64,000 nt of DNA. Origin: Acidobacteriota bacterium. Lineage in GTDB: Bacteria; Acidobacteriota; Blastocatellia; Pyrinomonadales; Pyrinomonadaceae. Shown here one piece after another: positions 857 through 55,940 of the stretch. Each line of letters begins with the position of its first letter. The stretch's first letter is position 1. The notes below the pieces were generated by a model. The model did not search any database. It had not been told where the DNA came from and worked only from the letters and a program-made list of their open reading frames with translations. The DNA lies in contig JAVHWW010000075.1 in assembly GCA_032159235.1 (NCBI GenBank), positions 3,717 to 67,716 of the forward strand, given 5' to 3'. A program made the translations under genes and the position numbers.

Positions 857-930
857 AGTTTTGAATTTTGAGTTTTGAGTGTTGAATTATTGTTTTCAAC
901 TCAAAACTCAGAATTCAAAACTCATAATTC
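857..930. repeat. Family C palindromic element (7-nt units GAGTTTT/GAATTTT)
   Basis: Left arm 857-886, loop 887-894, right arm 895-930. Arms are imperfect reverse complements. Begins 5 nt after the nadK stop. Same unit family as 15510-15594. Confidence 0.85.
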
Positions 931-1198
931 GACATCGGGACGGCTGGCAAACGTGATGTGGAGCGCGGGGCGGAATGAAACCATGCCCGCGCATCAGATG
1001 AGTGTATGAGAATGAGTCTTGCCGAAGCTCTCTCACTTGCCAGCGTTGAGATGTAAAAACGCTCAACGCCACGTAATTGAAGCGCCTTTCAAAAAATCCC
1101 CGCCTTTGAAGTCCAAAGGAACAGCAGGTGCATGAACCCACTTGTTTGACCACGCTCTCTGTTGTTTGGCTATTGCAGGCGAGCGTTTCTAACATGAG

Positions 1199-1981
1199 GT
1201 GACAGCAACGATGATCTTCCCGATAGGCGATGACAACTCCGACCGCACGAGCGCGCCCATCATCAACTATCTGCTCATTGCGATCAATATCGTGGTCTTC
1301 GTCTGGCTGCAACAGGCCGGTGCGAATGACAAGTTCACCTACGCTTACTCGACCGTTCCCGAAGAGATTAGAACCGGGCGCGATGTGACCGAGCGCGACA
1401 TCCCAAACAATTATGCGATGCAAGACCCGCAAAGCGGCGAGCGCCGTACACTTCCACTTCAGCCGACGCCGGGTTCAGTTTACCTCACGCTGCTGACTTC
1501 CATGTTCATGCACGGAAGCTGGATGCATCTGCTGGGCAACATGCTCTTTTTGTGGATATTCGGTGACAATGTCGAGAACGCTTTGGGACGCATCAGGTAT
1601 TTAATCTTCTACCTCTTGACGGGCTTGATTGCATCGCTCGCACAGGTCTTTACGACGTTTGCGTTCAACGGCAATCCGTTCATTCCGAGTCTCGGCGCTT
1701 CGGGCGCGATCTCCGGCGTGCTCGGCGGTTACCTGCTTTTGTTTCCGCGCAATCAGGTGCGCGTGATTCTGTTCAGGTTCCTGACCAGCGTTCCGGCCAT
1801 CGTCGCCATCGGTCTCTGGTTCGTGTTGCAGTTAGTCAGCGCGTTCGGCGTCATCGGTGCTGGCCCACAATCGGGCGGCGGCGTGGCATTCATGGCGCAC
1901 GTCGGCGGCTTCATCGCCGGACTCGTGCTCGTCAAAATCTTCGCCATCGGGCGCACGCCCACTGTGGCGAGACCTTATTAA
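1199..1981 (+). CDS. Rhomboid family intramembrane serine protease
   Basis: HLLGNMLFLWIFG and GASGAISGVLG (GxSG) motifs plus a downstream AHVGGF His. Multi-TM. Start is GTG 1199 or ATG 1211. Confidence 0.85.
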   Translation: MTATMIFPIGDDNSDRTSAPIINYLLIAINIVVFVWLQQAGANDKFTYAYSTVPEEIRTGRDVTERDIPNNYAMQDPQSGERRTLPLQPTPGSVYLTLLTSMFMHGSWMHLLGNMLFLWIFGDNVENALGRIRYLIFYLLTGLIASLAQVFTTFAFNGNPFIPSLGASGAISGVLGGYLLLFPRNQVRVILFRFLTSVPAIVAIGLWFVLQLVSAFGVIGAGPQSGGGVAFMAHVGGFIAGLVLVKIFAIGRTPTVARPY

Positions 1982-2053
1982 CTTTTCCCGCAACGTGTCT
2001 TCAACAGACGCTTGCGGCTTTGGCACTAAAATTCAAGCAAGGAGAAACAAGCA

Positions 2054-2512
2054 ATGGCTACGGATAACGACAAGACAGTCTCGACTCTCAACAACTTAAT
2101 CGAAACCTGCAAGGACGGCGAGAACGGATTCCGCACCGCCGCCGAAGGCATCAGGAAAGGTGAATTGAAGACGCTCTTCAACACCTACTCGCAGCAACGC
2201 GCGCAGTTTGCCGCCGAACTGCAAGCGGAAGTCCGTCATCTCGGCGGCGATCCTGAAAACTCTGGCAGCGTGGTCGCCACACTGCATCGCGGTTGGATCA
2301 ATCTCAAGTCAGCCGTCACGGGCAATGACGATGGCGCAATCATCAGCGAGTGTGAGCGCGGCGAGGATTCAGCCGTCAAAAATTATGAAGATGCTCTGAA
2401 GGAGAACCTGCCTGCCAACATTCGAGCAATCATCGAACAGCAGTTCACGCAGGTTAAGGAAGCGCACGATCAAGTCCGCGCGCTCGAAAGAGCCAGCAGC
2501 GCGAAAGCGTAA
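2054..2512 (+). CDS. PA2169/DUF2383-type ferritin-like four-helix protein
   Basis: 152 aa. The N-terminal LNNLIETCKDGENGFRTAAEG pattern is typical of the DUF2383 family. AAGGAGA lies upstream of the ATG. Confidence 0.7.
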   Translation: MATDNDKTVSTLNNLIETCKDGENGFRTAAEGIRKGELKTLFNTYSQQRAQFAAELQAEVRHLGGDPENSGSVVATLHRGWINLKSAVTGNDDGAIISECERGEDSAVKNYEDALKENLPANIRAIIEQQFTQVKEAHDQVRALERASSAKA

Positions 2513-2517
2513 AAGAA

Positions 2518-2623
2518 GAGACGCGGAGAGTGGGAGACGCGGCGACGCGGCGAGAAAGAAGAGTTGCTGTTGAGACCTCTCTTCTCTTTTCGCCGCGTCG
2601 CCGCGTCGCCGTGTCCCCGCGTC
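2518..2623. repeat. Family D palindromic element (8-nt units GAGACGCG/GGCGACGC)
   Basis: Left arm 2518-2563, loop 2564-2576, right arm 2577-2623. Inner GAAAGAAGAG/CTCTTCTCTTT extension. Starts 6 nt after the stop at 2512. Confidence 0.85.
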
Positions 2624-2689
2624 GCTTTTGCCTTTCCGCACGCCGCTCCTGTAAGATCACCCGTCAACCAAGCTGTAGGAGTTTTATCC

Positions 2690-3112
2690 GTGTCAACGAC
2701 TGAAACCATTCTTCCTCCCGCCAATCAACAGGGTCTCGACATCCGCTCGACGCCACGCGCTGAGATGAATCTTTACCCGCTCGACACTTTCCAGTATGAA
2801 TTCGTCGGGCGCGAAATTAGTATCAACTTTGAGATACCGGAATTCACGGCCATCTGTCCGTTCTCGGATTTCCCGGACTTCGCCATCATCCGTCTCGAGT
2901 ATGTCCCGAACGAACGCTGCATCGAACTCAAGAGCCTGAAACTCTACATCAACTCATTTCGTGAGGTGAAAATTTTCCACGAGCACGTCATCAACATCAT
3001 CCTCGAAGACTTCGTTGCCGCCTGCGATCCCTTGCGCGTGGAGATTGAAGGCGACTTCCACATTCGCGGAAACATTAAGACTATTGTCAGAGCGAGATAC
3101 GAAAAACAGTAG
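2690..3112 (+). CDS. queF: NADPH-dependent 7-cyano-7-deazaguanine reductase (type I QueF)
   Basis: [14 protein letters not shown] catalytic-Cys region and the ELKSLKLY QueF motif. GTG 2690 is preceded by AGGAG (2677-2681). The longer ORF from 2564 reads through the family D hairpin and is rejected. Confidence 0.85.
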
Positions 3113-3138
3113 TCAGTGGTCGGTGGTCGGTGGTCAGT
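3113..3138. repeat. Family A left arm (GTGGTCR 7-mers), split element
   Basis: TCAGTGGTCGGTGGTCGGTGGTCAGT directly after the queF TAG (3110-3112). Complementary to 3548-3578, 410 nt downstream. Confidence 0.8.
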
Positions 3139-3159
3139 TAAACGAAGGAGTATCGGCTG

Positions 3160-3552
3160 ATGCCACTTAAAAGTTACGGCGAGTTGATTGCTTGGCAGAA
3201 GGCTATGGATTTGGTGCAAAGTGTTTATGAAGCGGTCAGGGCTTTTCCGAAAGAGGAGATTTATGGATTAACGAGCCAGTTGAAGCGGGCTGCGGTTTCC
3301 GTGCCATCGAACATTGCCGAAGGGCAAGGGCGCAAGTCCACTCGTGAATTTCTACATCATTTATCTATCGCCTATGGCTCACTCATGGAAGTGGAAACAC
3401 AAATACTCATCGCAGTCAGGCTTGACTATTTGAGTCAACAAGATGCCGAACGGATTATTGAACGAACATCGGAAGTCGGTCGGCTCATCAACGGCTTATC
3501 GAATGCTCTGGCTAATAAACAAACTGAAGCTGCCACAGCACTGAACAACTGA
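3160..3552 (+). CDS. Four-helix-bundle protein (23S rRNA intervening-sequence protein / Avd family)
   Basis: AWQKAMDLV...LKRAAVSVPSNIAEGQGR...EFLHHLSIAYGSLMEVETQ is the family signature. GAAGGAG at 3144-3150. The TGA stop lies inside the right arm of the family A repeat. Confidence 0.85.
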   Translation: MPLKSYGELIAWQKAMDLVQSVYEAVRAFPKEEIYGLTSQLKRAAVSVPSNIAEGQGRKSTREFLHHLSIAYGSLMEVETQILIAVRLDYLSQQDAERIIERTSEVGRLINGLSNALANKQTEAATALNN

Positions 3553-3578
3553 CCACCGACCACTGACCACTGACCACT
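3548..3578. repeat. Family A right arm (TGACCAC 7-mers), split element
   Basis: ACTGACCACCGACCACTGACCACTGACCACT, reverse complement of 3113-3138. Followed 4 nt later by the ATG at 3583. Confidence 0.8.
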
Positions 3579-3582
3579 ACTT

Positions 3583-3807
3583 ATGACTTTTGCACTTTCA
3601 TCAATCGGCGGAATCATTGCGGCACTGGTGCTGTTCATCATCCTGAAGCGCGTCATCGGCATAGTTTTCCGCATCATTCTGGCGGGAGTCTTGCTGTTAG
3701 CGATTGTGATAGGTGGTTGGTGGTGGTCGAGGTCTGGTAATTCCTCGACCGCTAACGACAATAATGCTCATCCGCAGCAAACGCAGCCCGCGAAGAAGAA
3801 ACGCTAA
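3583..3807 (+). CDS. Small two-TM membrane protein, hypothetical
   Basis: 74 aa with two hydrophobic helices and a basic C-tail. No recognisable family. Confidence 0.45.
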   Translation: MTFALSSIGGIIAALVLFIILKRVIGIVFRIILAGVLLLAIVIGGWWWSRSGNSSTANDNNAHPQQTQPAKKKR

Positions 3808-10570: not shown

Positions 10571-10649
10571 GACTGTTCAAAAGTTCCTTTGATGATTTGG
10601 ATGTCGGGTGTGGATATTGACCCGCTCACAGGACGGTGTCAAGGAGAAG

Positions 10650-10728
10650 CAGTGGTTAGTAGTCAGTGGTCAGTGGGCAGTAAAAACAGCTTTTCAACTG
10701 ACCACTGACCACTGACCACTGACCACTG
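10650..10728 (-). repeat. Family A palindromic element (core in minus orientation)
   Basis: Left arm 10650-10681 (degenerate GTGGTYA units), loop AAAAACAGCTTTTCAA 10682-10697, right arm 10698-10728 (4x CTGACCA). Confidence 0.85.
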
Positions 10729-10737
10729 CATTAGTTG

Positions 10738-12180: not shown

Positions 12181-12251
12181 AGTGGTCAGTGGTCAGTGGT
12201 CAGTTGAAAAGCTGAACCAACTGACCACTGACCACTGACCACTGACCACTG
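12181..12251 (+). repeat. Family A palindromic element (core in plus orientation)
   Basis: Left arm 12181-12204 starts at the nt after the TAA (12178-12180). Loop TGAAAAGCTGAACCAA 12205-12220. Right arm 12221-12251. ATG at 12256. Confidence 0.9.
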
Positions 12252-12255
12252 CTTT

Positions 12256-13368
12256 ATGAAAATTCTCAACGTCGTCGGCGCGCGTCCCAATTTCATGAAG
12301 GTCGCGCCCATTGTTGAAGCGATGAAGCGGCGCGCGAGCGCGTTTACGCCGCTCGTCGTACACACGGGGCAGCACTACGACGCGCAGATGTCGGATGCTT
12401 TCTTTCGTGATCTGGGTCTGCCCGAACCCGACGTTTATCTGGGCGTCGGCTCAGGCTCTCACGCGGCGCAAACTGCCGCCGTAATGAAGAGTTTCGAGCC
12501 AATCGTGCTCGATGAGAAACCCGACTGGGTGCTCGTCGTCGGCGATGTCAACTCGACGCTGGCGTGCGCGCTCGTCTGCTCGAAGTTGCTGGTGAAAGTC
12601 GCGCACGTCGAAGCGGGCCTTCGCAGCCGCGACCGCACGATGCCCGAAGAGATCAATCGTCTGCTGACGGATCAGATCGCAGACCTTTTGCTGACGCCCT
12701 CACCAGACGCCGACGAGAACTTGAAAGCCGAAGGAATCCCGCAGGAGCGCATCCGCTTTGTCGGCAACGTGATGATTGATTCGCTCTTCAGTCAACTCAA
12801 GCGCGCCGAACAATCAACTGTGCGCGAAGACTTGGGCGTGGCCGGAAAGGATTACGCCGCGCTCACTCTTCATCGTCCATCAAATGTTGATGATGCGACA
12901 ACATTCAAACGCATCCTCGACGCGCTCGACGAGATTAGCCAACGCCTGCCAATCATCTTTCCCGTTCATCCGCGCACGCGCGCACGCCTTGCAGAGTTTG
13001 GCTTCAACGATTTAATTACCCGCGCGCCGAATCTTCGTCTCATCGAACCGCTCGGCTATCTGGATTTTCTACGGCTCTATAGCGGCGCGCGTCTCGTGCT
13101 CACGGATTCCGGCGGCATTCAGGAAGAGACAACCGCGCTCGGCATTCCCTGTCTCACGCTGCGCGAGAACACGGAGCGTCCCATCACAGTAGAGATGGGC
13201 ACGAACATCGTCGTCGGCACAAACACAGAGAAGATCACACACGCGGCATTCAACACGCTCGACACGCCGCGCGACCAGCAAACGACGCGCGTCCCGCCGC
13301 TCTGGGACGGCCACACGGCTGACCGTATCCTCGACGCGCTTCTCGAAGGGATGAGGGATGAGGGATGA
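12256..13368 (+). CDS. wecB: UDP-N-acetylglucosamine 2-epimerase (non-hydrolysing)
   Basis: MKILNVVGARPNFMKVAPI...HTGQHYD...GDVNSTLA...DSGGIQEE are canonical WecB motifs. The last 7 codons (GMRDEG) are encoded by the family B repeat arm. Confidence 0.9.
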   Translation: MKILNVVGARPNFMKVAPIVEAMKRRASAFTPLVVHTGQHYDAQMSDAFFRDLGLPEPDVYLGVGSGSHAAQTAAVMKSFEPIVLDEKPDWVLVVGDVNSTLACALVCSKLLVKVAHVEAGLRSRDRTMPEEINRLLTDQIADLLLTPSPDADENLKAEGIPQERIRFVGNVMIDSLFSQLKRAEQSTVREDLGVAGKDYAALTLHRPSNVDDATTFKRILDALDEISQRLPIIFPVHPRTRARLAEFGFNDLITRAPNLRLIEPLGYLDFLRLYSGARLVLTDSGGIQEETTALGIPCLTLRENTERPITVEMGTNIVVGTNTEKITHAAFNTLDTPRDQQTTRVPPLWDGHTADRILDALLEGMRDEG

Positions 13369-13425
13369 GGGATGAAGAAAAGAAAGTCTTAAAATTCATC
13401 CCTCATCCCTCATCCCTCATCCCTC
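13348..13425. repeat. Family B palindromic element (7-nt unit GGGATGA)
   Basis: Left arm 4x GGGATGA 13348-13375, loop 13376-13395, right arm 4x TCATCCC 13396-13425. Contains the wecB stop. Confidence 0.9.
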
Positions 13426-13523
13426 AGCTACGGCGCGCTCTGCGTGGTGAAGTTGATGCGCGCACACTTGCGCTGGAAGCGTGGAGACGCAGCCGCACGC
13501 AGCGTGAGCGACGGCGTGAGCGA

Positions 13524-15509: not shown

Positions 15510-15594
15510 GAATTATGAATTATGAGTTTTGAATTTTGAATTAAAAACTGTCAGTTCCGCCTTCAATTCAAAATTCAAAACTCATAATTCATAA
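15510..15594. repeat. Family C palindromic element (7-nt units GAATTAT/GAGTTTT/GAATTTT)
   Basis: Left arm 15510-15542 begins at the nt after the TGA (15507-15509). Loop AAAAACTGTCAGTTCCGCCT 15543-15562. Right arm 15563-15594. ATG at 15603. Confidence 0.9.
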
Positions 15595-15602
15595 CTACTT
15601 TT

Positions 15603-17531: not shown

Positions 17532-17688
17532 GCGAGACGCGGAGAAACGAGACACGGAGACACATAGACGCGGGGACGCGGCGAAAGACCGAAACGGAAA
17601 AGCTGAAAGAGTGAGCCAGCAGACTGAAAAATCGTCAGTCATCGCAGACGACTTGCCGCGTCTCCGTGTCCCCGCGTCTCCGCGTCGC
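17532..17688. repeat. Family D palindromic element with long loop
   Basis: Left arm 17532-17584 (about 8-nt units GAGACGCG/GAGACACG). Loop of about 68 nt containing GAAAAGCTGAA (17597-17607). Right arm 17653-17688. Starts at the nt after the asnB TGA. Confidence 0.85.
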
Positions 17689-18996
17689 TTCTCAGTTCAC
17701 GTCGCATGGACTGTCGCGGCGCGTCTGTTGATGACGGTCAACAGTGTCGCTGCCGGAGTCATCGTCGCGCGCTGGCTCGGCGCGGAAGGCTTGGGACAGT
17801 TAGCGGTCATCAACGTCGCTGTCGCAACCATTGTTCAACTGAGCAGCGCGGGTCTGCCTTCGGCCAACACATATTTCATCGCGCGCGATAAGAGCCATTT
17901 CGCGCCCGCCGCCGTCAACTCGCTTATCTTCGCGCTCGTTGTCGGCGGACTGCTGGCTCTGTGTTTGACGGGCGCAGCCGTGTGGCGTCCCGGTTGGTTC
18001 GGATTCATTTCGCCGCGATTGATTGGCATCGCCTCCATCTCAATCCCGTTTCAACTCATCACGCTCGTCGGCCTCAACATCTTTCTGGCGGTCGGACGTG
18101 TGGGGCGTTTCAATCTCTTCGATCTGGTCGGACAATCATTCGTGCTCGTCAACGCCATCGTCGCGCTCGTCATCCTGAACGCGGGGCTGTGGCTGCTCGT
18201 CTCCTTAAATGCAGGCGCGAGCGTGGTGATTGCCATCCTGATCGTGGCTCTGATCGGAGCTTACGGCGCGCAGATGAAAGAGCGAGTCGCGTGGCGTCCT
18301 GATCTACGACTCTTCGGACGCATGATGCGCTATGGCTTAAAATTTCATATCTCGATTCTCGCGGGTGCGCTCATCTTTCGCGCTGATTTGCTGGTGGTCA
18401 ACCATTTTCGTGGAGGCGCGGAGGCGGGAGTTTATAGCGTGGCGTCGCAGGTGGCGATGATGTTGATGCTGCTGCCGGGCGTCATCGCCACGCTGCTTTT
18501 TCCGCGCGTTGCAGCGAAGCGGGATGAGACAGGCGGGTTGACCTGCGTGGTGACAAGGCACACGGCGTTTGTGATGCTATGCCTTTGTTTGCTTGCTGCA
18601 CCGCTCAGTTTCGTTCTACCAATTCTATATGGCGCGGCGTTCGCGGATGTGAGCGTGCAGTTATTGATCTTGCTGCCGGGCGTGTATCTCATCGGGTTGG
18701 AGTCTATACTCGTGCAGCACTTCAATGCTGTCGGATTACCGATGGCGATTCCGCTCTTCTGGGTGGCGACGCTGGCGATCAACGTCGCGCTCGTCTTCGG
18801 ACTCGTTCCGCCCTTTGGAGCGCGCGGCGCGGCGTTAGCTTCAACCGTAAGTTACGCTTTGATCTTCGCTCTGGTCGCCATCTATTTTAGGATGTACACC
18901 CGCCGTAAACTTTCAGAAATGTTCTTCCTGAGTGGCTCGGAACTACGTGAATTGTTCGCGGCACAACGATTGAAAGTATCTTCCAAAAGAGCTTGA
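17653..18996 (+). CDS. Wzx-like polysaccharide/oligosaccharide flippase (MOP superfamily)
   Basis: About 12 TM with an ARWLGAEGLGQ N-terminal motif. The ORF opens at 17518 but that part is the family D hairpin. TTG 17653 is the last in-frame start before the first TM helix. Start uncertain. Confidence 0.7.
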   Translation: MPRLRVPASPRRFSVHVAWTVAARLLMTVNSVAAGVIVARWLGAEGLGQLAVINVAVATIVQLSSAGLPSANTYFIARDKSHFAPAAVNSLIFALVVGGLLALCLTGAAVWRPGWFGFISPRLIGIASISIPFQLITLVGLNIFLAVGRVGRFNLFDLVGQSFVLVNAIVALVILNAGLWLLVSLNAGASVVIAILIVALIGAYGAQMKERVAWRPDLRLFGRMMRYGLKFHISILAGALIFRADLLVVNHFRGGAEAGVYSVASQVAMMLMLLPGVIATLLFPRVAAKRDETGGLTCVVTRHTAFVMLCLCLLAAPLSFVLPILYGAAFADVSVQLLILLPGVYLIGLESILVQHFNAVGLPMAIPLFWVATLAINVALVFGLVPPFGARGAALASTVSYALIFALVAIYFRMYTRRKLSEMFFLSGSELRELFAAQRLKVSSKRA

Positions 18997-20672
18997 TGAA
19001 AGAGAAGCCAGCCGCGCGTGAAGATACGCGGCGCAATCAGATGAAGATCGTTCTGCTTGTCTTGAGCGGCGAAGCAATCCGCGCGCGCGATGCGTTGGTT
19101 GAGTGTTATCCGCAGGCCGAAATGGTTGAGATTCCACGCGCGCGACTCGAAAGCAGCGCGATGACGCAGCGTCTCAGTGCCTTGCGCGCTCTGCGCCCGG
19201 ACATCTTCGCGGTGGCGACCGAACGCCTCGCCTGGCAGCGCGGACAGAATGCTTTCTTACTCTTCGGTGCGCTGGCCGGAGCGCGACGCACAATCATCCT
19301 GGATGCTCACGGCGCGCAGCGTGAAGAGACGCGCGCGCGCAGCTTGATCGCTTCGCCGACGCGACTTGCGCGCGAGGCTGCGATCAGCGCGGCGGCGATC
19401 CGGCGCGGGGGCCAGCAACTGCGGAGACTCGAACTAGCTATTAAACGCGGTGAGCATCTGCGAACAAGCCCGCAGCAGAATTTGGAAACCGACGCGACCA
19501 CGATTACCTATCTTCGCGCGACGCCCGGACCCGGCACACAAATGGGCGGCGCGGCGAGCCACATCAACGGTTTCATCAACGCAGCGTTAGAGCTAGGCGC
19601 GCACATTTCTCTGGTCAGCAACGATCAGATCGCGGGGCTTGATGAAAAGAGGACGCCGTTGAAAATCATCTGGCCGAAACCGATTGGCTCGACCCGCGCC
19701 GCCTTCGACATCTACAACAACCTGCGCTTCACGCACGATGCTGCGCAGGAGATTCAGGAACAGCCGCCGGATTTCATCTATCAACGCTACAGTCGCTTTA
19801 GCTGGGCAGGAGTTGCAGCGAGCTTGAGAACAGGACGTCCACTGTTTCTCGAATACAACGGCTCGGAGGTGTGGGTCGGGCGCTACTGGGATCGCGTCGG
19901 GATGTTGGGCTTGCTTGAGCGCTACGAGCGACTTAATCTCGCAGCCGCCACGCGCGTCTTCGTCGTCTCGGAGGTTGAGCGACAGAATCTACTGCGCGCC
20001 CGCGTTGCGGATGAAAAGATTGTGGTCAATCCAAACGGCGTGGACGCAGAGCGTTTTCAACCGCACATCGGCGGCGAGCGCGTGCGCCGTGAGCTGGGGA
20101 TTGAAGGAGATGAAACGCTCGTTGGCTTCGTCGGCACGTTCGGCCCCTGGCATGGTGTGTTGGCGCTGGCCGAAGCGATCAAGTTGATTCCGAAAGACGC
20201 TCGCGTGCGTTTTCTCTTGGTCGGAAGCGGCGCTTTGCGGAGCGAGGTCGAAAGAATTTTGCGCGAAGCGAATGTTGAGCGGCGCGCAATTATGACCGGC
20301 GCAGTCGAGCATGAGCGTGTGCCCGCGCTGCTTGATGCGTGCGATGTGCTCGCCTCGCCGCACGTGCCGCTCGAAGACGGAAGTGAATTCTTCGGCTCGC
20401 CGACAAAACTTTTCGAGTACATGGCGATGGGCAAGGGCATTGTCGCCAGCCGTCTGGGACAAATCGGCGAGGTGCTCGCGGACGAAGAGACGGCGCTGCT
20501 GGTCGAGCCGGGCAACGCGCTTGAGTTGAGCGAAGCCGTCATGCGTTTGGTAAACTCTCAACAGTTGCGCGAGAGACTCGGCGCAGCAGCCAGACGCGAG
20601 GCCATCGCCAAACACACGTGGACGCACAATGCTCGGCGTGTGTTGGATGCGTATCGTTCCTGGCGTAAATGA
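18993..20672 (+). CDS. Glycosyltransferase family 4 (GT-B) with about 170-aa N-terminal extension
   Basis: C-terminal GT1/GT4 core (GTFGPWHG, EFFGSPTKLFEYMAMGKGIVAS = E-x7-E region). Alternative start ATG 19041. Confidence 0.85.
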   Translation: MMKEKPAAREDTRRNQMKIVLLVLSGEAIRARDALVECYPQAEMVEIPRARLESSAMTQRLSALRALRPDIFAVATERLAWQRGQNAFLLFGALAGARRTIILDAHGAQREETRARSLIASPTRLAREAAISAAAIRRGGQQLRRLELAIKRGEHLRTSPQQNLETDATTITYLRATPGPGTQMGGAASHINGFINAALELGAHISLVSNDQIAGLDEKRTPLKIIWPKPIGSTRAAFDIYNNLRFTHDAAQEIQEQPPDFIYQRYSRFSWAGVAASLRTGRPLFLEYNGSEVWVGRYWDRVGMLGLLERYERLNLAAATRVFVVSEVERQNLLRARVADEKIVVNPNGVDAERFQPHIGGERVRRELGIEGDETLVGFVGTFGPWHGVLALAEAIKLIPKDARVRFLLVGSGALRSEVERILREANVERRAIMTGAVEHERVPALLDACDVLASPHVPLEDGSEFFGSPTKLFEYMAMGKGIVASRLGQIGEVLADEETALLVEPGNALELSEAVMRLVNSQQLRERLGAAARREAIAKHTWTHNARRVLDAYRSWRK

Positions 20673-20759
20673 GGGGTCAAAGGTTAAATGGGGAAATGGT
20701 TAAAGGGAAGGCGGTAGCCGTTCTGCCTTTTCACCATTTCCCCATTTAACCTTTCCCCT
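20673..20759. repeat. Family F palindromic element (8-nt units AAGGTTAA/ATGGGGAA)
   Basis: Left arm 20673-20714, loop 20715-20722, right arm 20723-20759. Starts at the nt after the TGA (20670-20672). Confidence 0.85.
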
Positions 20760-20780
20760 ATCCTTACTGAAAGGTGAAGC

Positions 20781-21635: not shown

Positions 21636-21748
21636 AACGACGCGGGGACACGGAGACACGGAGACGCGGCGAGAAGAAAGATTATTGACGAGACCACGCT
21701 TTTCTTTTCGCCGCGTCTCCGCGTCGCCCACTCTCCGCGTCTTCACCC
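21636..21748. repeat. Family D palindromic element
   Basis: Left arm about 21636-21680 (GGACACGG/AGACACGG/AGACGCGG units). Loop with ATTATTGACGAGACC. Right arm about 21700-21748. Lies between convergent genes. Confidence 0.85.
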
Positions 21749-23737: not shown

Positions 23738-24970
23738 ATTTTCACAGGAAAATCCATCATCTGCTTTGCCGGTGAAGATTGGTGGTATCACCATCCGCAC
23801 TCGAAGAACCACTTGATGCGCAGGTTTGCGCGTGCAGGCAATAAGGTCATCTTCGTCAATTCGATTTCGATGGGTTTGGCTTCTGTCACGAACAAGGACT
23901 TGCTTCCGCGCGTGGCGAGAAAGTTGAAATCTTACGCGAAGCTGGCGCGCACGACGGAAGAAGGCATCACTGTAGTCTCACCTGCCGCGTTGCCTTTCTT
24001 CGGGAGTCGCGCCTCGCGTGCAGCTAATCGTCATCTACTGAGCGCGCAGGTCGGGGCGCTGGCGCGCAGTCGTGGACTCAGGAATCCTATCTTGTGGATT
24101 GCTATTCCGACAGCCGTTGAGATGATCGGACGGCTTCATGAGCAGTTGGTCGTTTACCAAGTCTCGGATAAGTACGACGCGAACACGATGGATCACGCGA
24201 CCGACCCAAAGACGATTCGCATCCTGCACGAACGCGCGTTAGATTCCGCCGACATCATCTTATATTCGGGACGCAAACTTCTGGCGGAAGCGACCAATGG
24301 GCGCGAGCGTTCATTTCTTTTGGAGCAAGCGGTTGATTTCGAGCACTGGGCGCGTGTAGGAAGCGGAGAGCTTGAAGTTGCGGAAGAAGTCGCACAGATT
24401 CCACGTCCGCGCATCGGCTACTTCGGCGCGATTGAACCCTGGCTCGTGGATCAGGAGTTAATCAAGCGGGCCTCGCGCGAACGTCCTCTCTGGCATTGGG
24501 TCTTCATCGGCAATCGCTCGCGCGGGCTTGAGATTGAAAATTTGCCGAACGTGCATTTTATTCCGCCCGTGAAATACGATGAGCTGCCACGCTACGCCGC
24601 AGGCTTCGACGTCTGCGTGCTGCCGTGGGAGACTGAGCAGACGTTCACCTCTTACGGCTCGGCTATCAAGGTGCGAGAATATCTGGCGACCGGCAAGCCC
24701 GTCGTCATCGCGCCGCTCCCCGAATATGAGCCGATGGCGGATGTGCTACGCATCGCTCGCAGCCGCGATGACTTTCTCAGGTTGGTTGAGGATGCGCTTG
24801 ACGAACAGGGAACTGAGCAGGCGCTCGCTCGCCAGGCCGCAGTGAGAGGTGGAACATGGGACGCGCGCGCAGAATGGGTCAGTAATTTAATTGAAGAAGC
24901 ACTGAAGAAAAAGTGGTCAGTGGTCAGTGGTCAGTGGTCAGTTGAAAAGACTGAACCGACTGACCACTGA
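23738..24970 (+). CDS. GT-B glycosyltransferase; probable non-canonical ATT start
   Basis: The first ATG (23813) truncates the conserved N-terminus. In-frame upstream codons read FTGKSIICFAGEDWWYHHPHSKNHL after TAG 23711-13. ATT 23738 sits 7 nt after GGAGA (23726-30). The C-terminal 19 codons are read from the family A repeat. Confidence 0.7.
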   Translation: MFTGKSIICFAGEDWWYHHPHSKNHLMRRFARAGNKVIFVNSISMGLASVTNKDLLPRVARKLKSYAKLARTTEEGITVVSPAALPFFGSRASRAANRHLLSAQVGALARSRGLRNPILWIAIPTAVEMIGRLHEQLVVYQVSDKYDANTMDHATDPKTIRILHERALDSADIILYSGRKLLAEATNGRERSFLLEQAVDFEHWARVGSGELEVAEEVAQIPRPRIGYFGAIEPWLVDQELIKRASRERPLWHWVFIGNRSRGLEIENLPNVHFIPPVKYDELPRYAAGFDVCVLPWETEQTFTSYGSAIKVREYLATGKPVVIAPLPEYEPMADVLRIARSRDDFLRLVEDALDEQGTEQALARQAAVRGGTWDARAEWVSNLIEEALKKKWSVVSGQWSVEKTEPTDH

Positions 24971-24989
24971 CCACTGACCACTGACCACT
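24912..24989 (+). repeat. Family A palindromic element (core in plus orientation)
   Basis: Left arm 24912-24942, loop TGAAAAGACTGAACCGA 24943-24959, right arm 24960-24989. Contains the GT stop (24968-70). ATG of the next gene at 24994. Confidence 0.9.
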
Positions 24990-24993
24990 TTGT

Positions 24994-29861: not shown

Positions 29862-30003
29862 AAGCAGAATTCAGGAGTCAGAATCCAGAATCCAGAAGAA
29901 AAGAAAAACCGAAGCGCGGAAGAACGGAAAAGCAGAATCTGTCAAAGTGGTTCTCCGCCTTTTCATTCTGGCTTCTGAATTCTGGATTCTGACTCCTGCT
30001 TTT
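29861..30003 (+). repeat. Family E palindromic element (7-nt units CAGAATC/CAGGAGT) with conserved core
   Basis: Left arm 29861-29898. Core of about 65 nt including AGAATCTGTCAAAGTGG...CCGCCTTTTCATTCTG. Right arm 29964-30003. Confidence 0.9.
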
Positions 30004-34242: not shown

Positions 34243-34389
34243 GTTTTCCATCTCCTTGTAATTTTTGTGCCGACCGTTGAACAGACAAGCTACCACAAGC
34301 AGGTAGAAAGGCGAAGGGAGAAAGTGAGGACACACCCAAGGCATGATTTATAAAAAGAGCATGGCACAGCTTGGTCCGCATCCTTCCGG

Positions 34390-34414
34390 CTTCTGACTCT
34401 TGACTTCTGGATTC
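34390..34414. repeat. Solo family E arm
   Basis: CTTCTGACTCTTGACTTCTGGATTC resembles a family E right arm, with no partner arm within 600 nt. Confidence 0.5.
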
Positions 34415-34649
34415 CGCTTCCTCTCGTCCATTCCTGATTGCCGAATTAGCCGGTTTGAGCTAAATTACGTGCAACAAAAAACGAAACTTTTATACGTCCG
34501 CGTTTTTCAGCCCTTGTGGTGGAGAGGATAGTCCGATGCAAACAGCCTTTTCCGTTCCTTTGTCTGGTGACCATCTCGAAGCTCGATACTTGGGATTATC
34601 TTCAAGTCATTTCTCGCCGGGCGGCAAAGATCAAGCGGACGCTGATGCG

Positions 34650-35051: not shown

Positions 35052-35055
35052 AGAA

Positions 35056-35159
35056 CAGAAGTCAGGAGTCAGAATCCAGAATCCAGAATACTAAGGCGGA
35101 AACCGCGTCCACAGATTTTGTTTTTATTCTGACTCCTGACTTCTGGATTCTGAATGCTG
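35056..35159 (-). repeat. Family E palindromic element (core in minus orientation)
   Basis: Left arm 35056-35090, right arm 35125-35159. The reverse complement of the loop, AAAACAAAATCTGTGGACGCGGTTTCCGCCTTAGTATTC, aligns with the cores at 54196-54230 and 55656-55696. Confidence 0.9.
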
Positions 35160-35168
35160 CTTTAACAA

Positions 35169-39021: not shown

Positions 39022-39026
39022 AAGGA

Positions 39027-39110
39027 GGGATGAGGGATGAGGGATGAGGGATGAATAAAAACGGATGAACGCTCCTCTGCTTCATCCCTCATCCCTCATC
39101 CCTCATCCCT
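39027..39110. repeat. Family B palindromic element (GGGATGA)
   Basis: Left arm 4x GGGATGA 39027-39054, loop 39055-39081, right arm 39082-39110. ATG at 39117. Confidence 0.9.
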
Positions 39111-41168: not shown

Positions 41169-41555
41169 ATGGAAGGCACTGGAAGATTTATCGGCGGCAG
41201 GTGGACGGCGCGAGTCGAATTGTTGCCGGGCGAGTTTGAAGTCTTCACACGGTCGGCACGACGCGGCTGGCGCGTGGGGCAGCTTGTCTTCACCAACCAG
41301 CGATTCATCTGGCTGCCGAAGTTCAAACGCAATGTGGAGGCGTCGGACATGCTGGTGATTCCACACGAGCGCGTGATGAGTTGCGGGACGGCGCGTCCCT
41401 GGCAGCATCTCTTTCTCGAACGTGCGTTGCGCCTACGGCTGCAAAGCGGCGAGACGATTCTCTTGATGGCCGGAGATGTGGAGACCATCTTGCCGCTCGT
41501 GCGCGATTACATGTCGCGCGGGCGTTATAAGCCTGGGGAACTGTTCAAAAATTAA
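41169..41555 (+). CDS. Hypothetical protein (PH/GRAM-like)
   Basis: 128 aa. The LVFTNQRFIWLP pattern resembles bacterial PH/GRAM domains. Weak call. Confidence 0.45.
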   Translation: MEGTGRFIGGRWTARVELLPGEFEVFTRSARRGWRVGQLVFTNQRFIWLPKFKRNVEASDMLVIPHERVMSCGTARPWQHLFLERALRLRLQSGETILLMAGDVETILPLVRDYMSRGRYKPGELFKN

Positions 41556-41645
41556 AAATGCAAAAGGAAAAATGCAAAATGGAAGATGAGAGGCTCACTC
41601 TTCGGTTTTCCATTTTGCATTTTTCCTTTTGCATTTTTAATTTTT
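41547..41645. repeat. Family H palindromic element (7-nt units AAAATGC/AAAAGGA)
   Basis: Left arm 41547-41584 (contains the TAA at 41553-55), loop 41585-41607, right arm 41608-41645. Confidence 0.85.
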
Positions 41646-47068: not shown

Positions 47069-47159
47069 AGTGGTCAGTGGTCAGTGGTCAGTGGTCAGTG
47101 GTCAGTGGTCAGTCGGTTCAGCTTTTCAACTGACCACTGACCACCGACCACTGACCACT
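47069..47159 (-). repeat. Family A palindromic element (core in minus orientation)
   Basis: Left arm 47069-47113 (6 units), loop CGGTTCAGCTTTTCAA 47114-47129, right arm 47130-47159. Fills the whole gap between the permease stop (47159-61) and the ATPase start (47062). Confidence 0.9.
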
Positions 47160-48269: not shown

Positions 48270-48375
48270 GTGAATGAGTGATAAGTGATGAGTGATAAGT
48301 GATGAGTGATAAGTAATAAGATGAAAGCCACGCTCTTTCTTATCACTTATCACTTATCACTTATCACTTATCACT
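48270..48375. repeat. Family G palindromic element (7-nt units GTGATAA/GTGATGA)
   Basis: Left arm 48270-48320, loop 48321-48339, right arm 5x TTATCAC 48340-48375. Contains the stop of the upstream lipoprotein gene. Confidence 0.9.
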
Positions 48376-49440
48376 CCCTTTCGCCCGTTGTTTCTCGCGC
48401 GCGTCTAAATCGAGTTCGGGCAGTTGCCATTTGTTTTCGAGGACGAAGATGCTCGACTTATATTCGTGATCAAGTTCGACGGCATCGGGCGCTTGATAGC
48501 TCATGCTCAGCTTGTAGCGGTCATGCGGGCGCGTCAGCTCGATGCGCGAAGGCATCACGAGGCGTCCGCCCTCGCCGAAATTTTTCGGGTCAAAGTATGA
48601 GACATCAGAATCCAGCAGTCCGTCCTTATCGAAAGTCTGCACGCGCGCCAGATGAATGCCGCCCACACGATCAAACCAGAAACGTCGCAACAGCCTGGCT
48701 CCGGTCTCACCTCCCGGCTCAAGCTCGTCCAGCAGATAATAGCCGCGCACGACACGCTCATCCTTCTTCGCACGCGGGCGCGTGTCCGCTTCCTCCTGAT
48801 AAAACTCGCTCATCGCATAAATCAATCCTGATTCTGCGCGCGATTGAACGGGACGAATCATCAGCGCATCCGTGAAATGCTGCGGGCGCAGATTAGAGAG
48901 CGCGTTGACCGTGCGCTCGCCATCCACTCCCTTCTTCTTTTTATCGTCCGCGCTCGTGTCCTCCATTGCCAGCTTCGGATAGACGGCGTTATTCGTTCCA
49001 CGCACGAAGCGCTTGTACGTCTCCTCGCCCTGCAAGACCGCGACCCGGAAATGCTCGCCATCGGAAGTCATCTCCGCGATGTCTGTGGCGACAAACGGCG
49101 CTTGAATCTTGAGATAAATCTGGCCGGGTCGCTGCAAATAGACAGTTCCGTCCGCCGTCCTGTATTTCTCGGCGAGGCCGGACTCGGCAAACGAGTTGTC
49201 CTGAATCTGGATGTCAATCTTGCCTTTGATGGAGCGCACGGTAGCCAGGCGATTGACTTCCGCCGTGAGTTGCGTCAGGTTCGCATTAGTCAGAGGCCCC
49301 AGCAGAGGCGCTGTCTTTACGGAATGCTTAACGCCGAACAGACTCGCGCAGCCGCTGACCATCAACAGGCTCAACGCAATTATGAAAAAGCTGGCGACGC
49401 GCGAATGATAGCTTTTCGACAAAGAGAATGAATTAAGCAT
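48364..49440 (-). CDS. LolB/LolA-like (DUF4292-like) lipoprotein
   Basis: LLMVSGC lipobox. Beta-rich body with a GKIDIQIQ...LQRPGQIYLKIQAPF pattern. ATG 49440. The last codons (GSDK) are encoded by the repeat arm. Confidence 0.6.
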   Translation of the reverse strand: MLNSFSLSKSYHSRVASFFIIALSLLMVSGCASLFGVKHSVKTAPLLGPLTNANLTQLTAEVNRLATVRSIKGKIDIQIQDNSFAESGLAEKYRTADGTVYLQRPGQIYLKIQAPFVATDIAEMTSDGEHFRVAVLQGEETYKRFVRGTNNAVYPKLAMEDTSADDKKKKGVDGERTVNALSNLRPQHFTDALMIRPVQSRAESGLIYAMSEFYQEEADTRPRAKKDERVVRGYYLLDELEPGGETGARLLRRFWFDRVGGIHLARVQTFDKDGLLDSDVSYFDPKNFGEGGRLVMPSRIELTRPHDRYKLSMSYQAPDAVELDHEYKSSIFVLENKWQLPELDLDAREKQRAKGSDK

Positions 49441-50118: not shown

Positions 50119-50120
50119 AT

Positions 50121-50170
50121 CAGTGGTCAGTGGTCAGTCGGTTCAGCTTCTCAACTGACCACTGACCACT
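50121..50170 (-). repeat. Family A palindromic element, short (core in minus orientation)
   Basis: Left arm 50121-50138, loop CGGTTCAGCTTCTCAA 50139-50154, right arm 50155-50170. Fills the gap between the stop at 50173 and the start at 50118. Confidence 0.85.
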
Positions 50171-52791: not shown

Positions 52792-52886
52792 GACGGAATC
52801 TCCTCTGTGTGATGAATGCGATTTGAGCGTTTAGGATTGTAGTGCTGAAACGGGGGCACGAGCAATAGCTTGCCTGACATCTTCAA

Positions 52887-54155: not shown

Positions 54156-54156
54156 A

Positions 54157-54271
54157 AAAGCAGGAGTCAGAATTCAGGAGTCAGGAGCCAGAAGAAAAGA
54201 AAATCAATAAAAGCGGGTTGCCGCCTGATCCATTCTGGATTCTGAATTCTGACTCCTGAATTCTGCCTTTC
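54157..54271 (+). repeat. Family E palindromic element (core in plus orientation)
   Basis: Left arm 54157-54195, core GAAAAGAAAATCAATAAAAGCGGGTTGCCGCCTGATC, right arm 54231-54271. Fills the gap between 54155 and 54273. Confidence 0.9.
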
Positions 54272-54272
54272 A

Positions 54273-54515
54273 TTAAATCCCGAACTGAACAAGTGTGCGT
54301 TCGATTGAGTTAAGCGAGATGAAATCTGTTTGTCCGGCGGCGCGCGCGTCTGCCAGCCAGCGCCGCAGCTTGCGCGCTTCGTCGAGCGAAGAGATGCGAC
54401 ACGCGCCCGTCAGCGCCAGCGTGACCAGACAATCGGGCGCACCGTGCGTGACGAGCGCCGCCTGTAATGCCGCCTGTTCGCGTAGATCGAGTGTTAATAG
54501 AAGATTGATTTCCAT
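54273..54515 (-). CDS. Hypothetical 80-aa protein
   Basis: ORF exactly bracketed by a family E and a family A element. No family recognised. Confidence 0.35.
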   Translation of the reverse strand: MEINLLLTLDLREQAALQAALVTHGAPDCLVTLALTGACRISSLDEARKLRRWLADARAAGQTDFISLNSIERTLVQFGI

Positions 54516-54516
54516 A

Positions 54517-54600
54517 GGTCAGTGGTCAGTGGTCGGTGGTCAGTGGTCAGATGGCGACGAGTGGTTTTCACTGACCACTGACCACTGACTACCGACCACT
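54517..54600. repeat. Family A palindromic element with divergent loop
   Basis: Left arm 54517-54550, loop ATGGCGACGAGTGGTTTTCA 54551-54570, right arm 54571-54600. Confidence 0.85.
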
Positions 54601-54603
54601 ATT

Positions 54604-55614
54604 TCATTCTCTTGCCGAACGAAAGCAGGCCGTGCCCGCGTGACAGAAGTGGAATGTTTCGTCCTCGAAATCCGTTGTCTCCATTTGAATCGTCAGGTGG
54701 TCAACGCCGAAACGATCCTGGAGTTTCGCGCGCAGTTGCTTCAAGAGTTCCGCCTGCGAGATTGTCTCGATGTGAATCACGTGCGCGCTCAGTGCCTCGC
54801 GTCCTGAAGTGATCGTCCAGATGTGCAGGTCGTGAACGTCCGTCACGCCGTCCGTCTGTAAGATAGCATCCTCGACCGCCGCGAGGTTGATGTGCGCGGG
54901 CGTGCCTTCCAGCAGCACGTTGGTTGATTCACGAATCAGATGCCACGAACTCCAGATGATGAGCAGGCCGATGAGACAACTAAAGAGCGGGTCGGCGGCG
55001 TACCATCCGTAAACGGACATCAACACGCCCGCGATAATCGCGCCGACGGAGCCAAGCGCATCGCCGATGATGTGCAGCCACGCGCCGCGCACATTCAAGT
55101 CGTCCTTGTGATCGCCGTGCAGCAACCGCGCGCAAACGAGATTGATGACCAGCCCGCCGCTTGCGACCAGGATCATCAAACCGCTTCTGACCACCGGCGG
55201 CTGTGCCCAGCGCTGATATGCCTCGTAGAAAATCAGAAACGAAATCAGAACGAGCGCGACGCCGTTAATCAAAGCGGCGAGAATCTCCAGACGATAGTAA
55301 CCGAACGTCTTGCTTGAAGTCGCTGGACGCGAGCCGAACCAGACGGCGATTAAAGCCAGCGCCAGCGCCGCGACATCTGTCAGCGCATGTCCGGCGTCGG
55401 CCAGCAGCGCGAGTGAGCCGGTCAACCATCCGCCCGCAGCCTCCGCAAACATGTAAACAGCCGTCAGCACCAGCACGATGCTCAGGCGACGGCGACTGCG
55501 CGCCGCACGACTATGCGAATGCGAGTGCGTGTGCTGAGGCTCTGACGCAGCATCATTCTCACGCGCCAACTCGCGCTCAACCTCATGTCCCACGCTGGTC
55601 TTCATCTGAAACAT
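54604..55614 (-). CDS. Cation diffusion facilitator (CzcD/ZitB-type) metal efflux transporter
   Basis: His-rich N-tail (HTHSHSHS). TM2 HALTD and TM5 HIIGD metal-site motifs. C-terminal cytoplasmic domain. Confidence 0.9.
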   Translation of the reverse strand: MFQMKTSVGHEVERELARENDAASEPQHTHSHSHSRAARSRRRLSIVLVLTAVYMFAEAAGGWLTGSLALLADAGHALTDVAALALALIAVWFGSRPATSSKTFGYYRLEILAALINGVALVLISFLIFYEAYQRWAQPPVVRSGLMILVASGGLVINLVCARLLHGDHKDDLNVRGAWLHIIGDALGSVGAIIAGVLMSVYGWYAADPLFSCLIGLLIIWSSWHLIRESTNVLLEGTPAHINLAAVEDAILQTDGVTDVHDLHIWTITSGREALSAHVIHIETISQAELLKQLRAKLQDRFGVDHLTIQMETTDFEDETFHFCHAGTACFRSARE

Positions 55615-55620
55615 AGCAAT

Positions 55621-55719
55621 CCAGAATTCAGAAGCCAGAAGTCAGAAGCCAGAAGAAAAGAAGAACAAAATCTGTCGAAGCGGGTTGCTGCCTTAGCATT
55701 CTGAATTCTGGATTCTGCC
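55621..55719 (+). repeat. Family E palindromic element (core in plus orientation)
   Basis: Left arm 55621-55655, core AAAAGAAGAACAAAATCTGTCGAAGCGGGTTGCTGCCTTAG, right arm 55697-55719. Confidence 0.85.
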
Positions 55720-55851
55720 TTTCAAGCGCCTGTGTACTGTCTGCGATGATGTCACCTGCGGCTTCGATGCCGACAGCGCGCACATGCCTCAGCCCCGCCG
55801 CGTCCAGCTTCTAAGATTAGCAGATTACGAGGGAGGCTGACAGCCGAAGAT

Positions 55852-55940
55852 AAGGTGAAAAGGTTAAAAGGTTAAATGGGGAAGGGGGCAAAGCAGATTG
55901 CTCTTACCTTTCCCCATTTAACCTTTTAACCTTTGCCCTT
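55852..55940. repeat. Family F palindromic element (8-nt units AAGGTTAA/ATGGGGAA)
   Basis: Left arm 55852-55893, loop, right arm 55908-55940. Ends 4 nt before the stop codon at 55945-47. Confidence 0.85.

Follow-up and report, generated by a model that had tools for sequence, protein, structure and literature searches.

Hairpins with tandem-unit arms at gene boundaries of an acidobacterium and their association with S23p genes

Introduction

The stretch of DNA analysed in this study, hereafter the window, is a 64-kb segment (64,000 nt) of contig JAVHWW010000075.1 from a Pyrinomonadaceae acidobacterium, and carries between its protein-coding genes a set of 22 hairpin-forming elements, each arm of which is a run of short tandem units of 7 or 8 nt. 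One of these elements is split and encloses a gene for a four-helix-bundle protein of the S23p type (PF05635/TIGR02436), and this arrangement of two arms around one open reading frame (ORF) is here referred to as the S23p cassette. In cyanobacteria, heptamer repeats in tandem have been on record since 1990, and in Geobacter, Xanthomonas and Beggiatoa they have been noted as curiosities; we know of no origin or function assigned to them, and to our knowledge the intervening sequences (IVSs) of rRNA are equally unexplained. Genes for PF05635/TIGR02436 four-helix-bundle proteins are among the commonest orphan genes of soil and aquatic bacteria, and S23p itself is a pentameric four-helix-bundle protein related to Avd of diversity-generating retroelements (DGRs). 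On balance, we favor the view that the hairpins are ORF-less copies of S23p cassettes, similar to IVSs or to MITEs (transposable elements of the miniature inverted-repeat type), within a widespread and barely characterised class of palindromes that is gained, lost and replaced at gene boundaries.

Results

Identification of hairpins with tandem-unit arms

By scanning the window with Tandem Repeats Finder, arrays of period 7 or 8 were found in reverse-complementary pairs wherever the original prediction, made from inspection of the sequence, had placed a palindrome, and the solo arm noted near 34390 was also present. With an inverted-repeat finder, the periodic-arm pairs came out as the longest inverted repeats of the window. 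Using a custom hairpin finder (arms of at least 16 nt, at least 78% complementary, with a loop of up to 130 nt) and 20 dinucleotide-preserving shuffles of the window as the null model, we identified a total of 33 hairpins, against a mean of 5.85 (maximum 10) per shuffle. For hairpins with periodic arms, defined by an arm autocorrelation of 0.6 or higher at period 7 or 8, the numbers were 21 in the window and a mean of 0.05 (maximum 1) per shuffle. Together with the split pair 3108-3139/3547-3578, the 21 periodic hairpins make up the 22 elements that had been claimed, with period-7 arrays of 2.4-6.4 units at 17 elements and period 8 at 5 elements (Table 1). The presence of the hairpin class in the window is hereby confirmed, and is striking.

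The location of the elements at gene boundaries, also part of the original prediction, proved to be strict. Intergenic DNA makes up 6,240 nt (9.75%) of the window and holds all 21 periodic hairpins (P ~6e-22). Of the gaps between co-directional genes, 18 of 45 are occupied, against 1 of 7 convergent and 1 of 6 divergent ones. The median spacing between the upstream stop codon and the element is +1 nt, that between the element and the following start codon is 6 nt, and for 7 of 19 elements the stop codon is supplied by the element itself. Shine-Dalgarno-like motifs are scarce overall (16/45) and are not significantly rarer after hairpins (2/14). As had been supposed, no existing Rfam family describes the elements, the covariance models giving 0 matches at gathering score on both strands of the 64 kb. 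There was likewise no rRNA in the window by Rfam, the elements standing between protein-coding genes, and a tRNA/tmRNA scan of the window gave none.

Association of S23p genes with inverted heptamer arrays

The S23p gene of the window matches PF05635 (E = 4e-40), TIGR02436 and PDB 2GSC (XCC0516). In order to compare its arms with the surroundings of other genes, we scored the flank-to-flank complementarity over 120 nt on each side of a gene (match +1, mismatch -1.6), with a total of 88 genes as controls, i.e., 56 other genes of the window and 32 other genes of a Nostoc plasmid. The score of the window cassette was 20.8; the 56 other genes of the window did not exceed 11.2, nor the 32 plasmid genes 12. 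A total of 25 S23p loci were scored, coming from Acidobacteriota, Cyanobacteriota, Bacteroidota and Xanthomonas; the scores of 18 of them, 14.4-39.8, are above all 88 controls, and 5 further loci carry a 4-5-unit array upstream and two complementary units directly past the stop codon. In four other contexts, the acidobacterial S23p homologs all lie between inverted arrays of AGTGGTC or near variants thereof. The homologs that tblastn detected on plasmids (17 loci scored) are mostly from Nostocales, the home of the short tandemly repeated repetitive (STRR) sequences.

The unit of the arms varies by lineage of S23p (GGGAGTA, AGGTGAC, GGGTGTA, GGGAACA, GGGAAAA, AGGAGATA, GCAGAGGA, AAGGTTY and CAGGAGT), and CAGGAGT is also a unit of family E of the window. 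The divergence of the arm units in step with the proteins indicates that ORF and arms descend together. Cassette and hairpins with the same unit also coexist: the Nostoc plasmid with a GGGAACA cassette has three ORF-less GGGAACA hairpins in addition to two other hairpin families, and 7 of the 22 window elements are of family A, the unit of the window's own cassette.

For Xanthomonas, it was predicted beforehand that a gene of the XCC0516 type would be flanked by inverted GGGAATC arrays. Such a gene was indeed found between accB and accC, the left array beginning 5-8 nt past the accB stop codon and the right array ending at the ATG of accC. S23p genes are also located within the operons for the beta and alpha subunits of ribonucleotide reductase (Nostoc), cas6/cas4 (Anabaena and Pseudanabaena) and cas10/cmr3 (Picosynechococcus). 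Insertion into operons beside cas genes may explain why PF05635 has been reported as 'CRISPR-associated' in large-scale screens (PMC10910872). On the link between S23p and heptamers, and on the family-A array string, the searchable literature yielded nothing beyond a note on the Coxiella IVS; the consistent embedding of PF05635/S23p genes in split heptamer hairpins across four phyla, backed by a prediction that was met, appears to be new.

Other split inverted arrays, 150-1600 nt apart, were examined as candidate cassettes and rejected, for the genes between them are ordinary ones (for rplB, a permease of the FtsX type and a thymidylyltransferase) and the arrays arise because neighboring full hairpins share a family. 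Near-identical S23p copies were found on five contigs, of which three are orthologous and two, which are short, lose similarity within the right arm; these copies are no more than suggestive of recent transposition. Two contigs (L236 and L239) share QueF and the S23p cassette with window positions 2616-3574, the homology ending in the right arm, after which an rpoN-like gene follows the cassette in place of the hyp74 and major facilitator superfamily (MFS) genes. Rearrangements may have their junctions at the arrays, with the caveat that chimeras occur among short metagenome contigs. Directly past the cassette, at 3583-3807 (+), is encoded a predicted membrane peptide of 74 aa, which is conserved together with the cassette in the relatives L237 and L238.

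In the arms of family-A cassettes, AGTAGTC is frequently the outermost unit (3108-3114 of the window; loci L192 and L235-L239), with ...ACTAC on the opposite side. The tetranucleotide GTAG is thereby present in the outermost AGTAGTC of several family-A arms, and is absent from the other families. GTAG is the head tetranucleotide of many repetitive extragenic palindromic (REP) sequences that is recognised by the REP-associated tyrosine transposases (RAYTs).

Unit families, polarity and distribution

The elements of the window had been assigned to eight families, A to H, considered to be unrelated. After comparison of the units, allowing rotation and strand, this description could not be maintained: only 1 nt separates families B and G, and likewise C from each of E and H, while A differs by 2 nt from each of E and G, the chance of a distance of 1 or less being 0.018 for one random unit pair. 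Family A is also 1 nt from STRR2, TTGGTCA, the other families being 2-4 mismatches from STRR units, and families E and D are identical (distance 0) with class 3 (MTYCTGA) and class 2 (TCTCCGTS), respectively, of Geobacter metallireducens. The families furthermore share a polarity, the G-rich arm being the 5' arm in 20 of the 21 hairpins of the window; among all periodic hairpins analysed (window plus loci L005-L189) this holds for 222 of 248, or 114 of 140 when family A is left out. Many 5'-arm units contain Shine-Dalgarno-like cores (GGAG, GAGG, GGGA).

When one genome per GTDB species was scanned for exact matches to the family-A palindrome pattern (GTGGTCA)2GT-N5-35-AC(TGACCAC)2, at least 105 stretches with the palindromic layout were obtained. 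Among the matches listed are three classes of Acidobacteriota, Planctomycetota, Chloroflexota, Gemmatimonadota, Armatimonadota, Binatia, 'Deltaproteobacteria' and one Lewinella, and family-A units are present in at least eight phylum-level groups. The 8-kb blocks around the family-A matches also contain hairpins of other units, and the Nostoc plasmid carries palindromic multi-family heptamer hairpins like those of the window. The same architecture was observed in finished plasmids, in finished genomes and in the long-read chromosomes of metagenome-assembled genomes (MAGs).

Copying, gain and loss of the elements

Three elements (12181, 47069 and 50121) have the loop TGAAAAGCTGAACC[A/G] in common, allowing one substitution; it occurs also at locus L148, and is present with a 1-nt insertion in the element at 24912; other loop subtypes recur at many loci within single genomes. 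The finding of the same or nearly the same loops at unrelated loci suggests that the elements are copied as units. The orientation of the loop relative to gene direction seemed consistent in the window, yet both orientations exist in relatives.

The presence/absence polymorphism that had been suggested for orthologous gaps was found. In 50 relatives (79-89% protein identity), the gap between the genes for UDP-sugar dehydrogenase (UDPGDH) and epimerase contains hairpins made from one or another of at least nine different heptamer units, non-periodic hairpins, or nothing, being then an empty gap of 2-6 nt. The S23p cassette between QueF and MFS is confined to the lineage of the window, and the family-B hairpin between epimerase and heparinase is common to the window and one relative.

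Unit number differs between the two arms of an element (6.4 versus 4.4 at 47069; 3.4 versus 4.6 at 12181), which fits slippage. The original proposal, that the generating mechanism acts on structure and not on sequence, stands in so far as unit number is probably altered by slippage. It does not stand for the origin of the elements: loops recur, units recur across phyla and arms travel with the S23p gene, which points to copying of pre-existing elements rather than local de novo origin.

Folding as RNA

All 12 elements tested fold as RNA, at -35 to -82 kcal/mol and with z values from -5.5 to -12.8. The perfect RNA stems predicted are 17-41 bp in length.

Assembly, strain variation and gene calling

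Palindromes fragment short-read assemblies, and the contigs that carry close S23p homologs are mostly just 0.5-2 kb long. An independent Logan assembly (L004, from SRR24887004) begins inside a hairpin arm and is identical with window positions 52417-54194 over 1,778 nt; the suspicion of an assembly artefact, raised with the original prediction, was not borne out. Between the window and the corresponding 122-kb metagenome contig of the Joint Genome Institute (JGI), Ga0467068_0000066, two differences were detected in ~63 kb, both at hairpins: a 1-nt indel in a T-run at 20755 (deletion in the window), in the 3' arm of a family-F hairpin, and 18 single-nucleotide polymorphisms (SNPs) within 172 nt (55492-55663), the patch ending inside the loop of the hairpin at 55618 (family E). 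The hairpins thus seem to be hot spots of strain variation, recombination or consensus error.

The hairpins distort the gene calls made by JGI. For heparinase, the start was placed at 13365, an ATG inside a GGGATGA array; spurious ORFs of 42-49 aa were called in hairpins (24931-25068, 35048-35176 and 55649-55783); and a glycosyltransferase ORF (23816-24970) continues across a 5' arm to a stop codon within the loop.

Location of the elements and neighboring features

Table 1. Hairpins, solo arm and S23p cassette of the 64-kb window
Feature	Position	Strand	Description
Family C hairpin	857..930		GAATTTT/GAGTTTT units; 4 nt past stop codon of upstream ORF
Family D hairpin	2516..2627		8-mer GAGACGCG/GGCGACGC; 3 nt past DUF2383 stop codon; -82 kcal/mol
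S23p cassette (formerly 'split' family-A element)	3108..3578	+	Left arm 3108-3139, AGTAGTC/AGTGGTC; right arm 3547-3578, GACCACT
S23p gene (PF05635/TIGR02436, four-helix bundle)	3160..3552	+	130 aa; own Shine-Dalgarno sequence AAGGAG
Family A hairpin	10649..10729		Divergent gap; loop in reverse orientation
Family A hairpin	12181..12251		Fills UDPGDH/epimerase gap, 0 nt after stop and 4 nt before ATG; loop TGAAAAGCTGAACCA
Family B hairpin (GGGATGA)	13347..13426		Epimerase stop codon within first arm; same family at same site in relative L017
Family C hairpin	15510..15596		0 nt past stop codon, 6 nt ahead of start codon
Family D hairpin	17533..17693		Long loop, 72-82 nt
Family F hairpin	20668..20765		8-mer AAGGTTAA/ATGGGGAA; 1-nt indel in 3' arm versus JGI contig
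Family D hairpin	21636..21742		Convergent gap
Family A hairpin	24910..24991		Perfect 33-bp arms; upstream ORF stops in loop; next ATG 2 nt downstream
Family E hairpin (CAGAATC/CAGGAGT)	29861..29998		Loop 73 nt
Solo family-E arm, C-rich type	34388..34415		Complementary to 5' arm of element at 35056
Family E hairpin	35056..35150		
Family B hairpin	39025..39110		Perfect 30-bp arms; 3 nt past stop codon, 6 nt ahead of start codon
Family H hairpin (AAAATGC/AAAAGGA)	41547..41645		Perfect 38-bp arms
Family A hairpin	47069..47159		Between FtsX and ABC ATPase genes; arms of 6.4 versus 4.4 units
Family G hairpin (GTGATAA/GTGATGA)	48274..48376		
Family A hairpin, shortest	50120..50170		17-bp arms; 2 nt past stop codon, 1 nt ahead of start codon
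Family E hairpin	54161..54268		Independent Logan contig L004 begins within 3' arm
Family A hairpin, different loop	54517..54600		
Family E hairpin	55618..55717		3 nt upstream of start codon of cation diffusion facilitator (CDF) gene; 18-SNP patch versus JGI contig ends in loop
Family F hairpin	55852..55934		10 nt past stop codon of Zn-ribbon gene

The solo family-E arm pairs, over 34388-34409, with 35056-35080 (22 nt, 2 mismatches) across the response-regulator gene at 34536-35051. As its polarity is reversed, with the C-rich arm first, it is probably the remnant of an older hairpin. An ORF of 80 aa without Pfam match (54273-54515, minus strand) has a family-E hairpin on one side and one of family A on the other. 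One convergent gap contains a non-periodic palindrome with 44-nt arms of 77% complementarity (33613-33712) and a hairpin of 18 perfect base pairs closed by a loop of 3 nt (33826-33864), and a 21-nt tandem repeat of 2.4 copies (33210-33259) lies within a 120-aa ORF (33198-33560). Some orthologs of the UDP-sugar dehydrogenase at 10843-12180 (P0002, P0045 and P0059) have a length of 621-627 aa and contain intein/Hint domains (PF14890, PF07591); the window copy is without such a domain.

Discussion

Relation to known repeat systems

The original prediction could not place the elements in any described class. The class is, however, already in the literature under several names, never defined or explained, and the elements of the window are its members in a new phylum, as is evident from the identical Geobacter classes 2 and 3, the GGGAATC pairs of Xanthomonas, the hairpins of the Nostoc plasmid and the heptamers in the stem of the Coxiella IVS. 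The STRR heptanucleotides of heterocystous cyanobacteria, reportedly described by Mazel et al. in 1990 (a study cited in PMC4692102), are said to be tandem, intergenic and of several families per genome. Dispersed tandem heptamer arrays are thus common to both, but STRRs are direct arrays in cyanobacteria, with palindromy and boundary locking outside their definition, whereas the host of the window elements, judged by the names of homologs, is a Pyrinomonadaceae acidobacterium (Blastocatellia). Cyanobacterial STRR-type arrays, the paired tandem repeats of Geobacter and the GGGAATC pairs of Xanthomonas form one class with the window elements.

In G. metallireducens, tandem octa- and heptanucleotide repeats, mostly paired on opposite strands, were described as unexplained sites of global regulators (Aklujkar et al. 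2009; PMC2700814). Their features, i.e., 3-5 tandem units of 7 or 8 nt, two sites on opposite strands and an intergenic location, are all found in the window. The Geobacter pairs are separated by variable distances and fall into several classes per genome, one example lying between proB and proA; belonging to a different phylum, they were interpreted as binding sites of an IHF/HU-type protein, with no connection to hairpins, RNA or S23p (PMC2700814). In each Xanthomonas genome, GGGAATC arrays form 70-75 convergent, ORF-less pairs (Rehm et al. 2015; PMC4692102), which resemble the window elements in being tandem heptamers, inverted and intergenic, with the G-rich arm first, but which are of one unit family and were studied as G-quadruplex formers, the S23p link not being noted (PMC4692102). 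The TAACTGA repeats of Beggiatoaceae, cyanobacteria and Bacteroidetes are intergenic runs of 2-6 units, often ending 1 nt before a start codon (PMC4679880). TAACTGA is 1 nt from family G and shows a patchy cross-phylum distribution, as does the window class; the TAACTGA repeats are nearly all direct (169 direct sets versus 1 indirect; PMC4679880), while the window elements are inverted.

The IVS of Coxiella 23S rRNA has a 28-bp stem with tandem GACAGAT heptamers around an S23p ORF, the first of these repeats being the site of cutting by RNase III (PMC4990558). The window elements share with the 23S rRNA IVSs of Coxiella and Leptospira the terminal inverted-repeat stem, the optional PF05635 ORF in the loop and the existence of short ORF-less versions, but the IVSs are located in helices 25 and 45 of 23S rRNA and the window elements between protein genes, at about one per 3 kb and with many unit families. 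Excision by RNase III has been shown for the 23S rRNA IVS (PMC4990558), whereas for the window elements the stems of double-stranded RNA (dsRNA) are predicted. RNase III also binds and cleaves Correia elements (PMC2649163). The abundance of intergenic palindromes, the gene between cognate inverted repeats and the presence/absence polymorphism are as in REP/REPIN-RAYT systems and in MITEs and Correia elements (PMC3116915, PMC3333891, PMC2649163). Unlike REP/REPIN and MITEs, the window elements have tandem-unit arms of variable length, gave no transposase or target-site duplication, and enclose a four-helix-bundle gene; an ORF-bearing version with the same arms exists, but its ORF is no known transposase.

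Proposed mechanism

Given their placement, the elements must be co-transcribed with the operons, unless they terminate transcription. Within such transcripts they would form perfect dsRNA stems of 17-41 bp, and RNase III would probably cleave these stems, as it does in the Coxiella IVS, thereby separating the flanking cistrons and rendering the insertions nearly harmless. The elements would be copied as whole units by some machinery, with S23p possibly in a cognate role; the layout of the cassette, two arms around an S23p gene, is that of the ORF-containing intervening sequences of 23S rRNA. Persistence almost exclusively between stop and start codons would follow if an insertion of 50-160 nt is harmless there, and replication slippage would alter the unit number. 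More speculatively, pairing at the base of the stem might join the nucleotides directly past the stop codon to those immediately ahead of the following start codon, and a terminating ribosome would thus open the downstream initiation region.

A more far-reaching version may be put forward tentatively. Hairpins and S23p cassettes would be two forms of one widespread and as yet unrecognised 'intervening-sequence' class, present at gene boundaries and occasionally in 23S rRNA, in at least Acidobacteriota, Cyanobacteriota, Bacteroidota and Pseudomonadota, and S23p might act as a cognate factor by recognising or maintaining its own unit arrays or assisting in their copying, in a relation like that of a RAYT to its REPINs.

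Several observations weigh against the interpretation of the hairpins as copies of S23p cassettes and against parts of the mechanism. Among the eight families of the window only one has a cassette, and no S23p homolog beyond the window copy was detected by jackhmmer/phmmer in ~1.4 Mb of other loci, so that most hairpins have no cassette nearby and a one-to-one relation between family and cassette is unproven. The family-A loop resembles the inner ends of the cassette over ~15 nt only, and family-A loops are unrelated across phyla, hence recent transfer of a single hairpin does not account for the sharing of units between phyla. The S23p locus of Pseudanabaena has direct, not inverted, arrays on both sides, and that of Calothrix PCC 7716 has no arrays. 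No target-site duplication was found on comparison of filled with empty orthologous gaps, Pfam annotation revealed no transposase among the called genes of the 64-kb window, and we know of no catalytic activity of S23p. Among the mismatches of imperfect stems on the sense strand, G.U does not exceed A.C (34 versus 44, p = 0.31), giving no sign of selection on the sense-RNA fold in particular, and the cleavage by RNase III is inferred purely by analogy.

Alternative explanations

The elements might instead originate de novo at each site, a heptamer next to a stop codon being expanded by slippage and inverted by template switching, with structure and periodicity favored by selection or by the mechanism itself and arbitrary units as the outcome. 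Such an origin agrees with the unequal unit numbers between the arms of one element, with the different units in the same orthologous gap, with the exact filling of gaps without target-site duplication, and with the 1-nt indel in an arm between two assemblies. We nevertheless consider it unlikely, since identical or near-identical loops are found at unrelated loci, units recur across phyla (A in at least eight groups, D and E as Geobacter classes), one and the same protein family accompanies the arms at 18 of 25 loci, and a common G-rich-first polarity is unexpected from arbitrary local seeds. Mobilisation in trans of REP/REPIN-type elements by a RAYT (Y1/HUH) encoded elsewhere, with S23p as a mere passenger, is quite unlikely in view of the absence of a Y1_Tnp domain from all called genes of the 64-kb window, the identity of the enclosed gene as S23p and not RAYT in 25 of 25 loci, and the nature of the arms, which are tandem arrays of variable length and not a fixed REP of 20-40 nt. 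The dense intergenic palindromes, the formal resemblance of a gene between its own inverted repeats to the RAYT-REP arrangement, the REP head GTAG in the frequent outermost AGTAGTC of family A, and the insertion of Geobacter insertion sequence (IS) elements at a fixed distance from paired repeats (PMC2700814) are the points in its favor.

A role as intrinsic, possibly bidirectional, terminators or attenuators could account for the position directly past stop codons, for the AAAG...CTTT that brackets several stems and for the run of four T's in 5 of 17 sense-strand tails. Yet T runs of the sense strand never exceed 4 nt and 12 of the 17 tails lack even these, the stems are of 17-41 bp and not 5-14 bp, and terminator-like sites are not enriched (26 versus 23.5 expected); no heptamer-arm stem is among the sites listed, only the inner loop hairpin of a family-F element being included. 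In addition, 18 of the occupied gaps are co-directional, many in obvious operons with the next ATG 1-6 nt away, and only 1 of 7 convergent gaps is occupied. The canonical intrinsic terminator was rejected on the basis of U-tracts of 4 nt or less, lack of enrichment and lack of a heptamer stem among the sites, and termination or attenuation in general appears very unlikely. It is highly improbable that the elements act at the DNA level as binding-site arrays of an IHF/HU-like nucleoid or global regulator, or of a single-strand-binding protein that reads heptamers: this is the interpretation given for Geobacter (PMC2700814), and the strand-symmetric mismatch spectra, the strict palindromy and a period of about one site per 7 nt are compatible with it, but at least eight different units in one genome would need many proteins or one indifferent to sequence, the location is at stop/start junctions rather than promoters, and turnover at orthologous sites is rapid. 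As to an artefact of assembly or sequencing, palindromes do break short-read assemblies, L004 begins in an arm, S23p contigs are mostly of 0.5-2 kb and both differences from the JGI contig are at hairpins; the identity of the independent assembly and the presence of the architecture in finished genomes and plasmids, long-read MAG chromosomes and published genomes (PMC2700814, PMC4692102) leave it practically no probability.

Significance

In practical terms, the palindromes break short-read assemblies and mislead gene callers into spurious ORFs, false starts within GGGATGA arrays and ORFs running into arms. The point worth following up is the link to S23p rather than the hairpins themselves. 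If the association holds genome-wide, heptamer repeats, PF05635 orphans and rRNA IVSs become connected, and the system becomes experimentally tractable in model organisms, e.g., at accB-S23p-accC of X. campestris, for which the protein structure has been solved. If hairpins and cassettes are indeed forms of one class, a single explanation would apply to the STRRs, the GGGAATC arrays of Xanthomonas, the Geobacter sites and the ORF-bearing IVSs of rRNA, and a very large family of orphan proteins would gain its first function.

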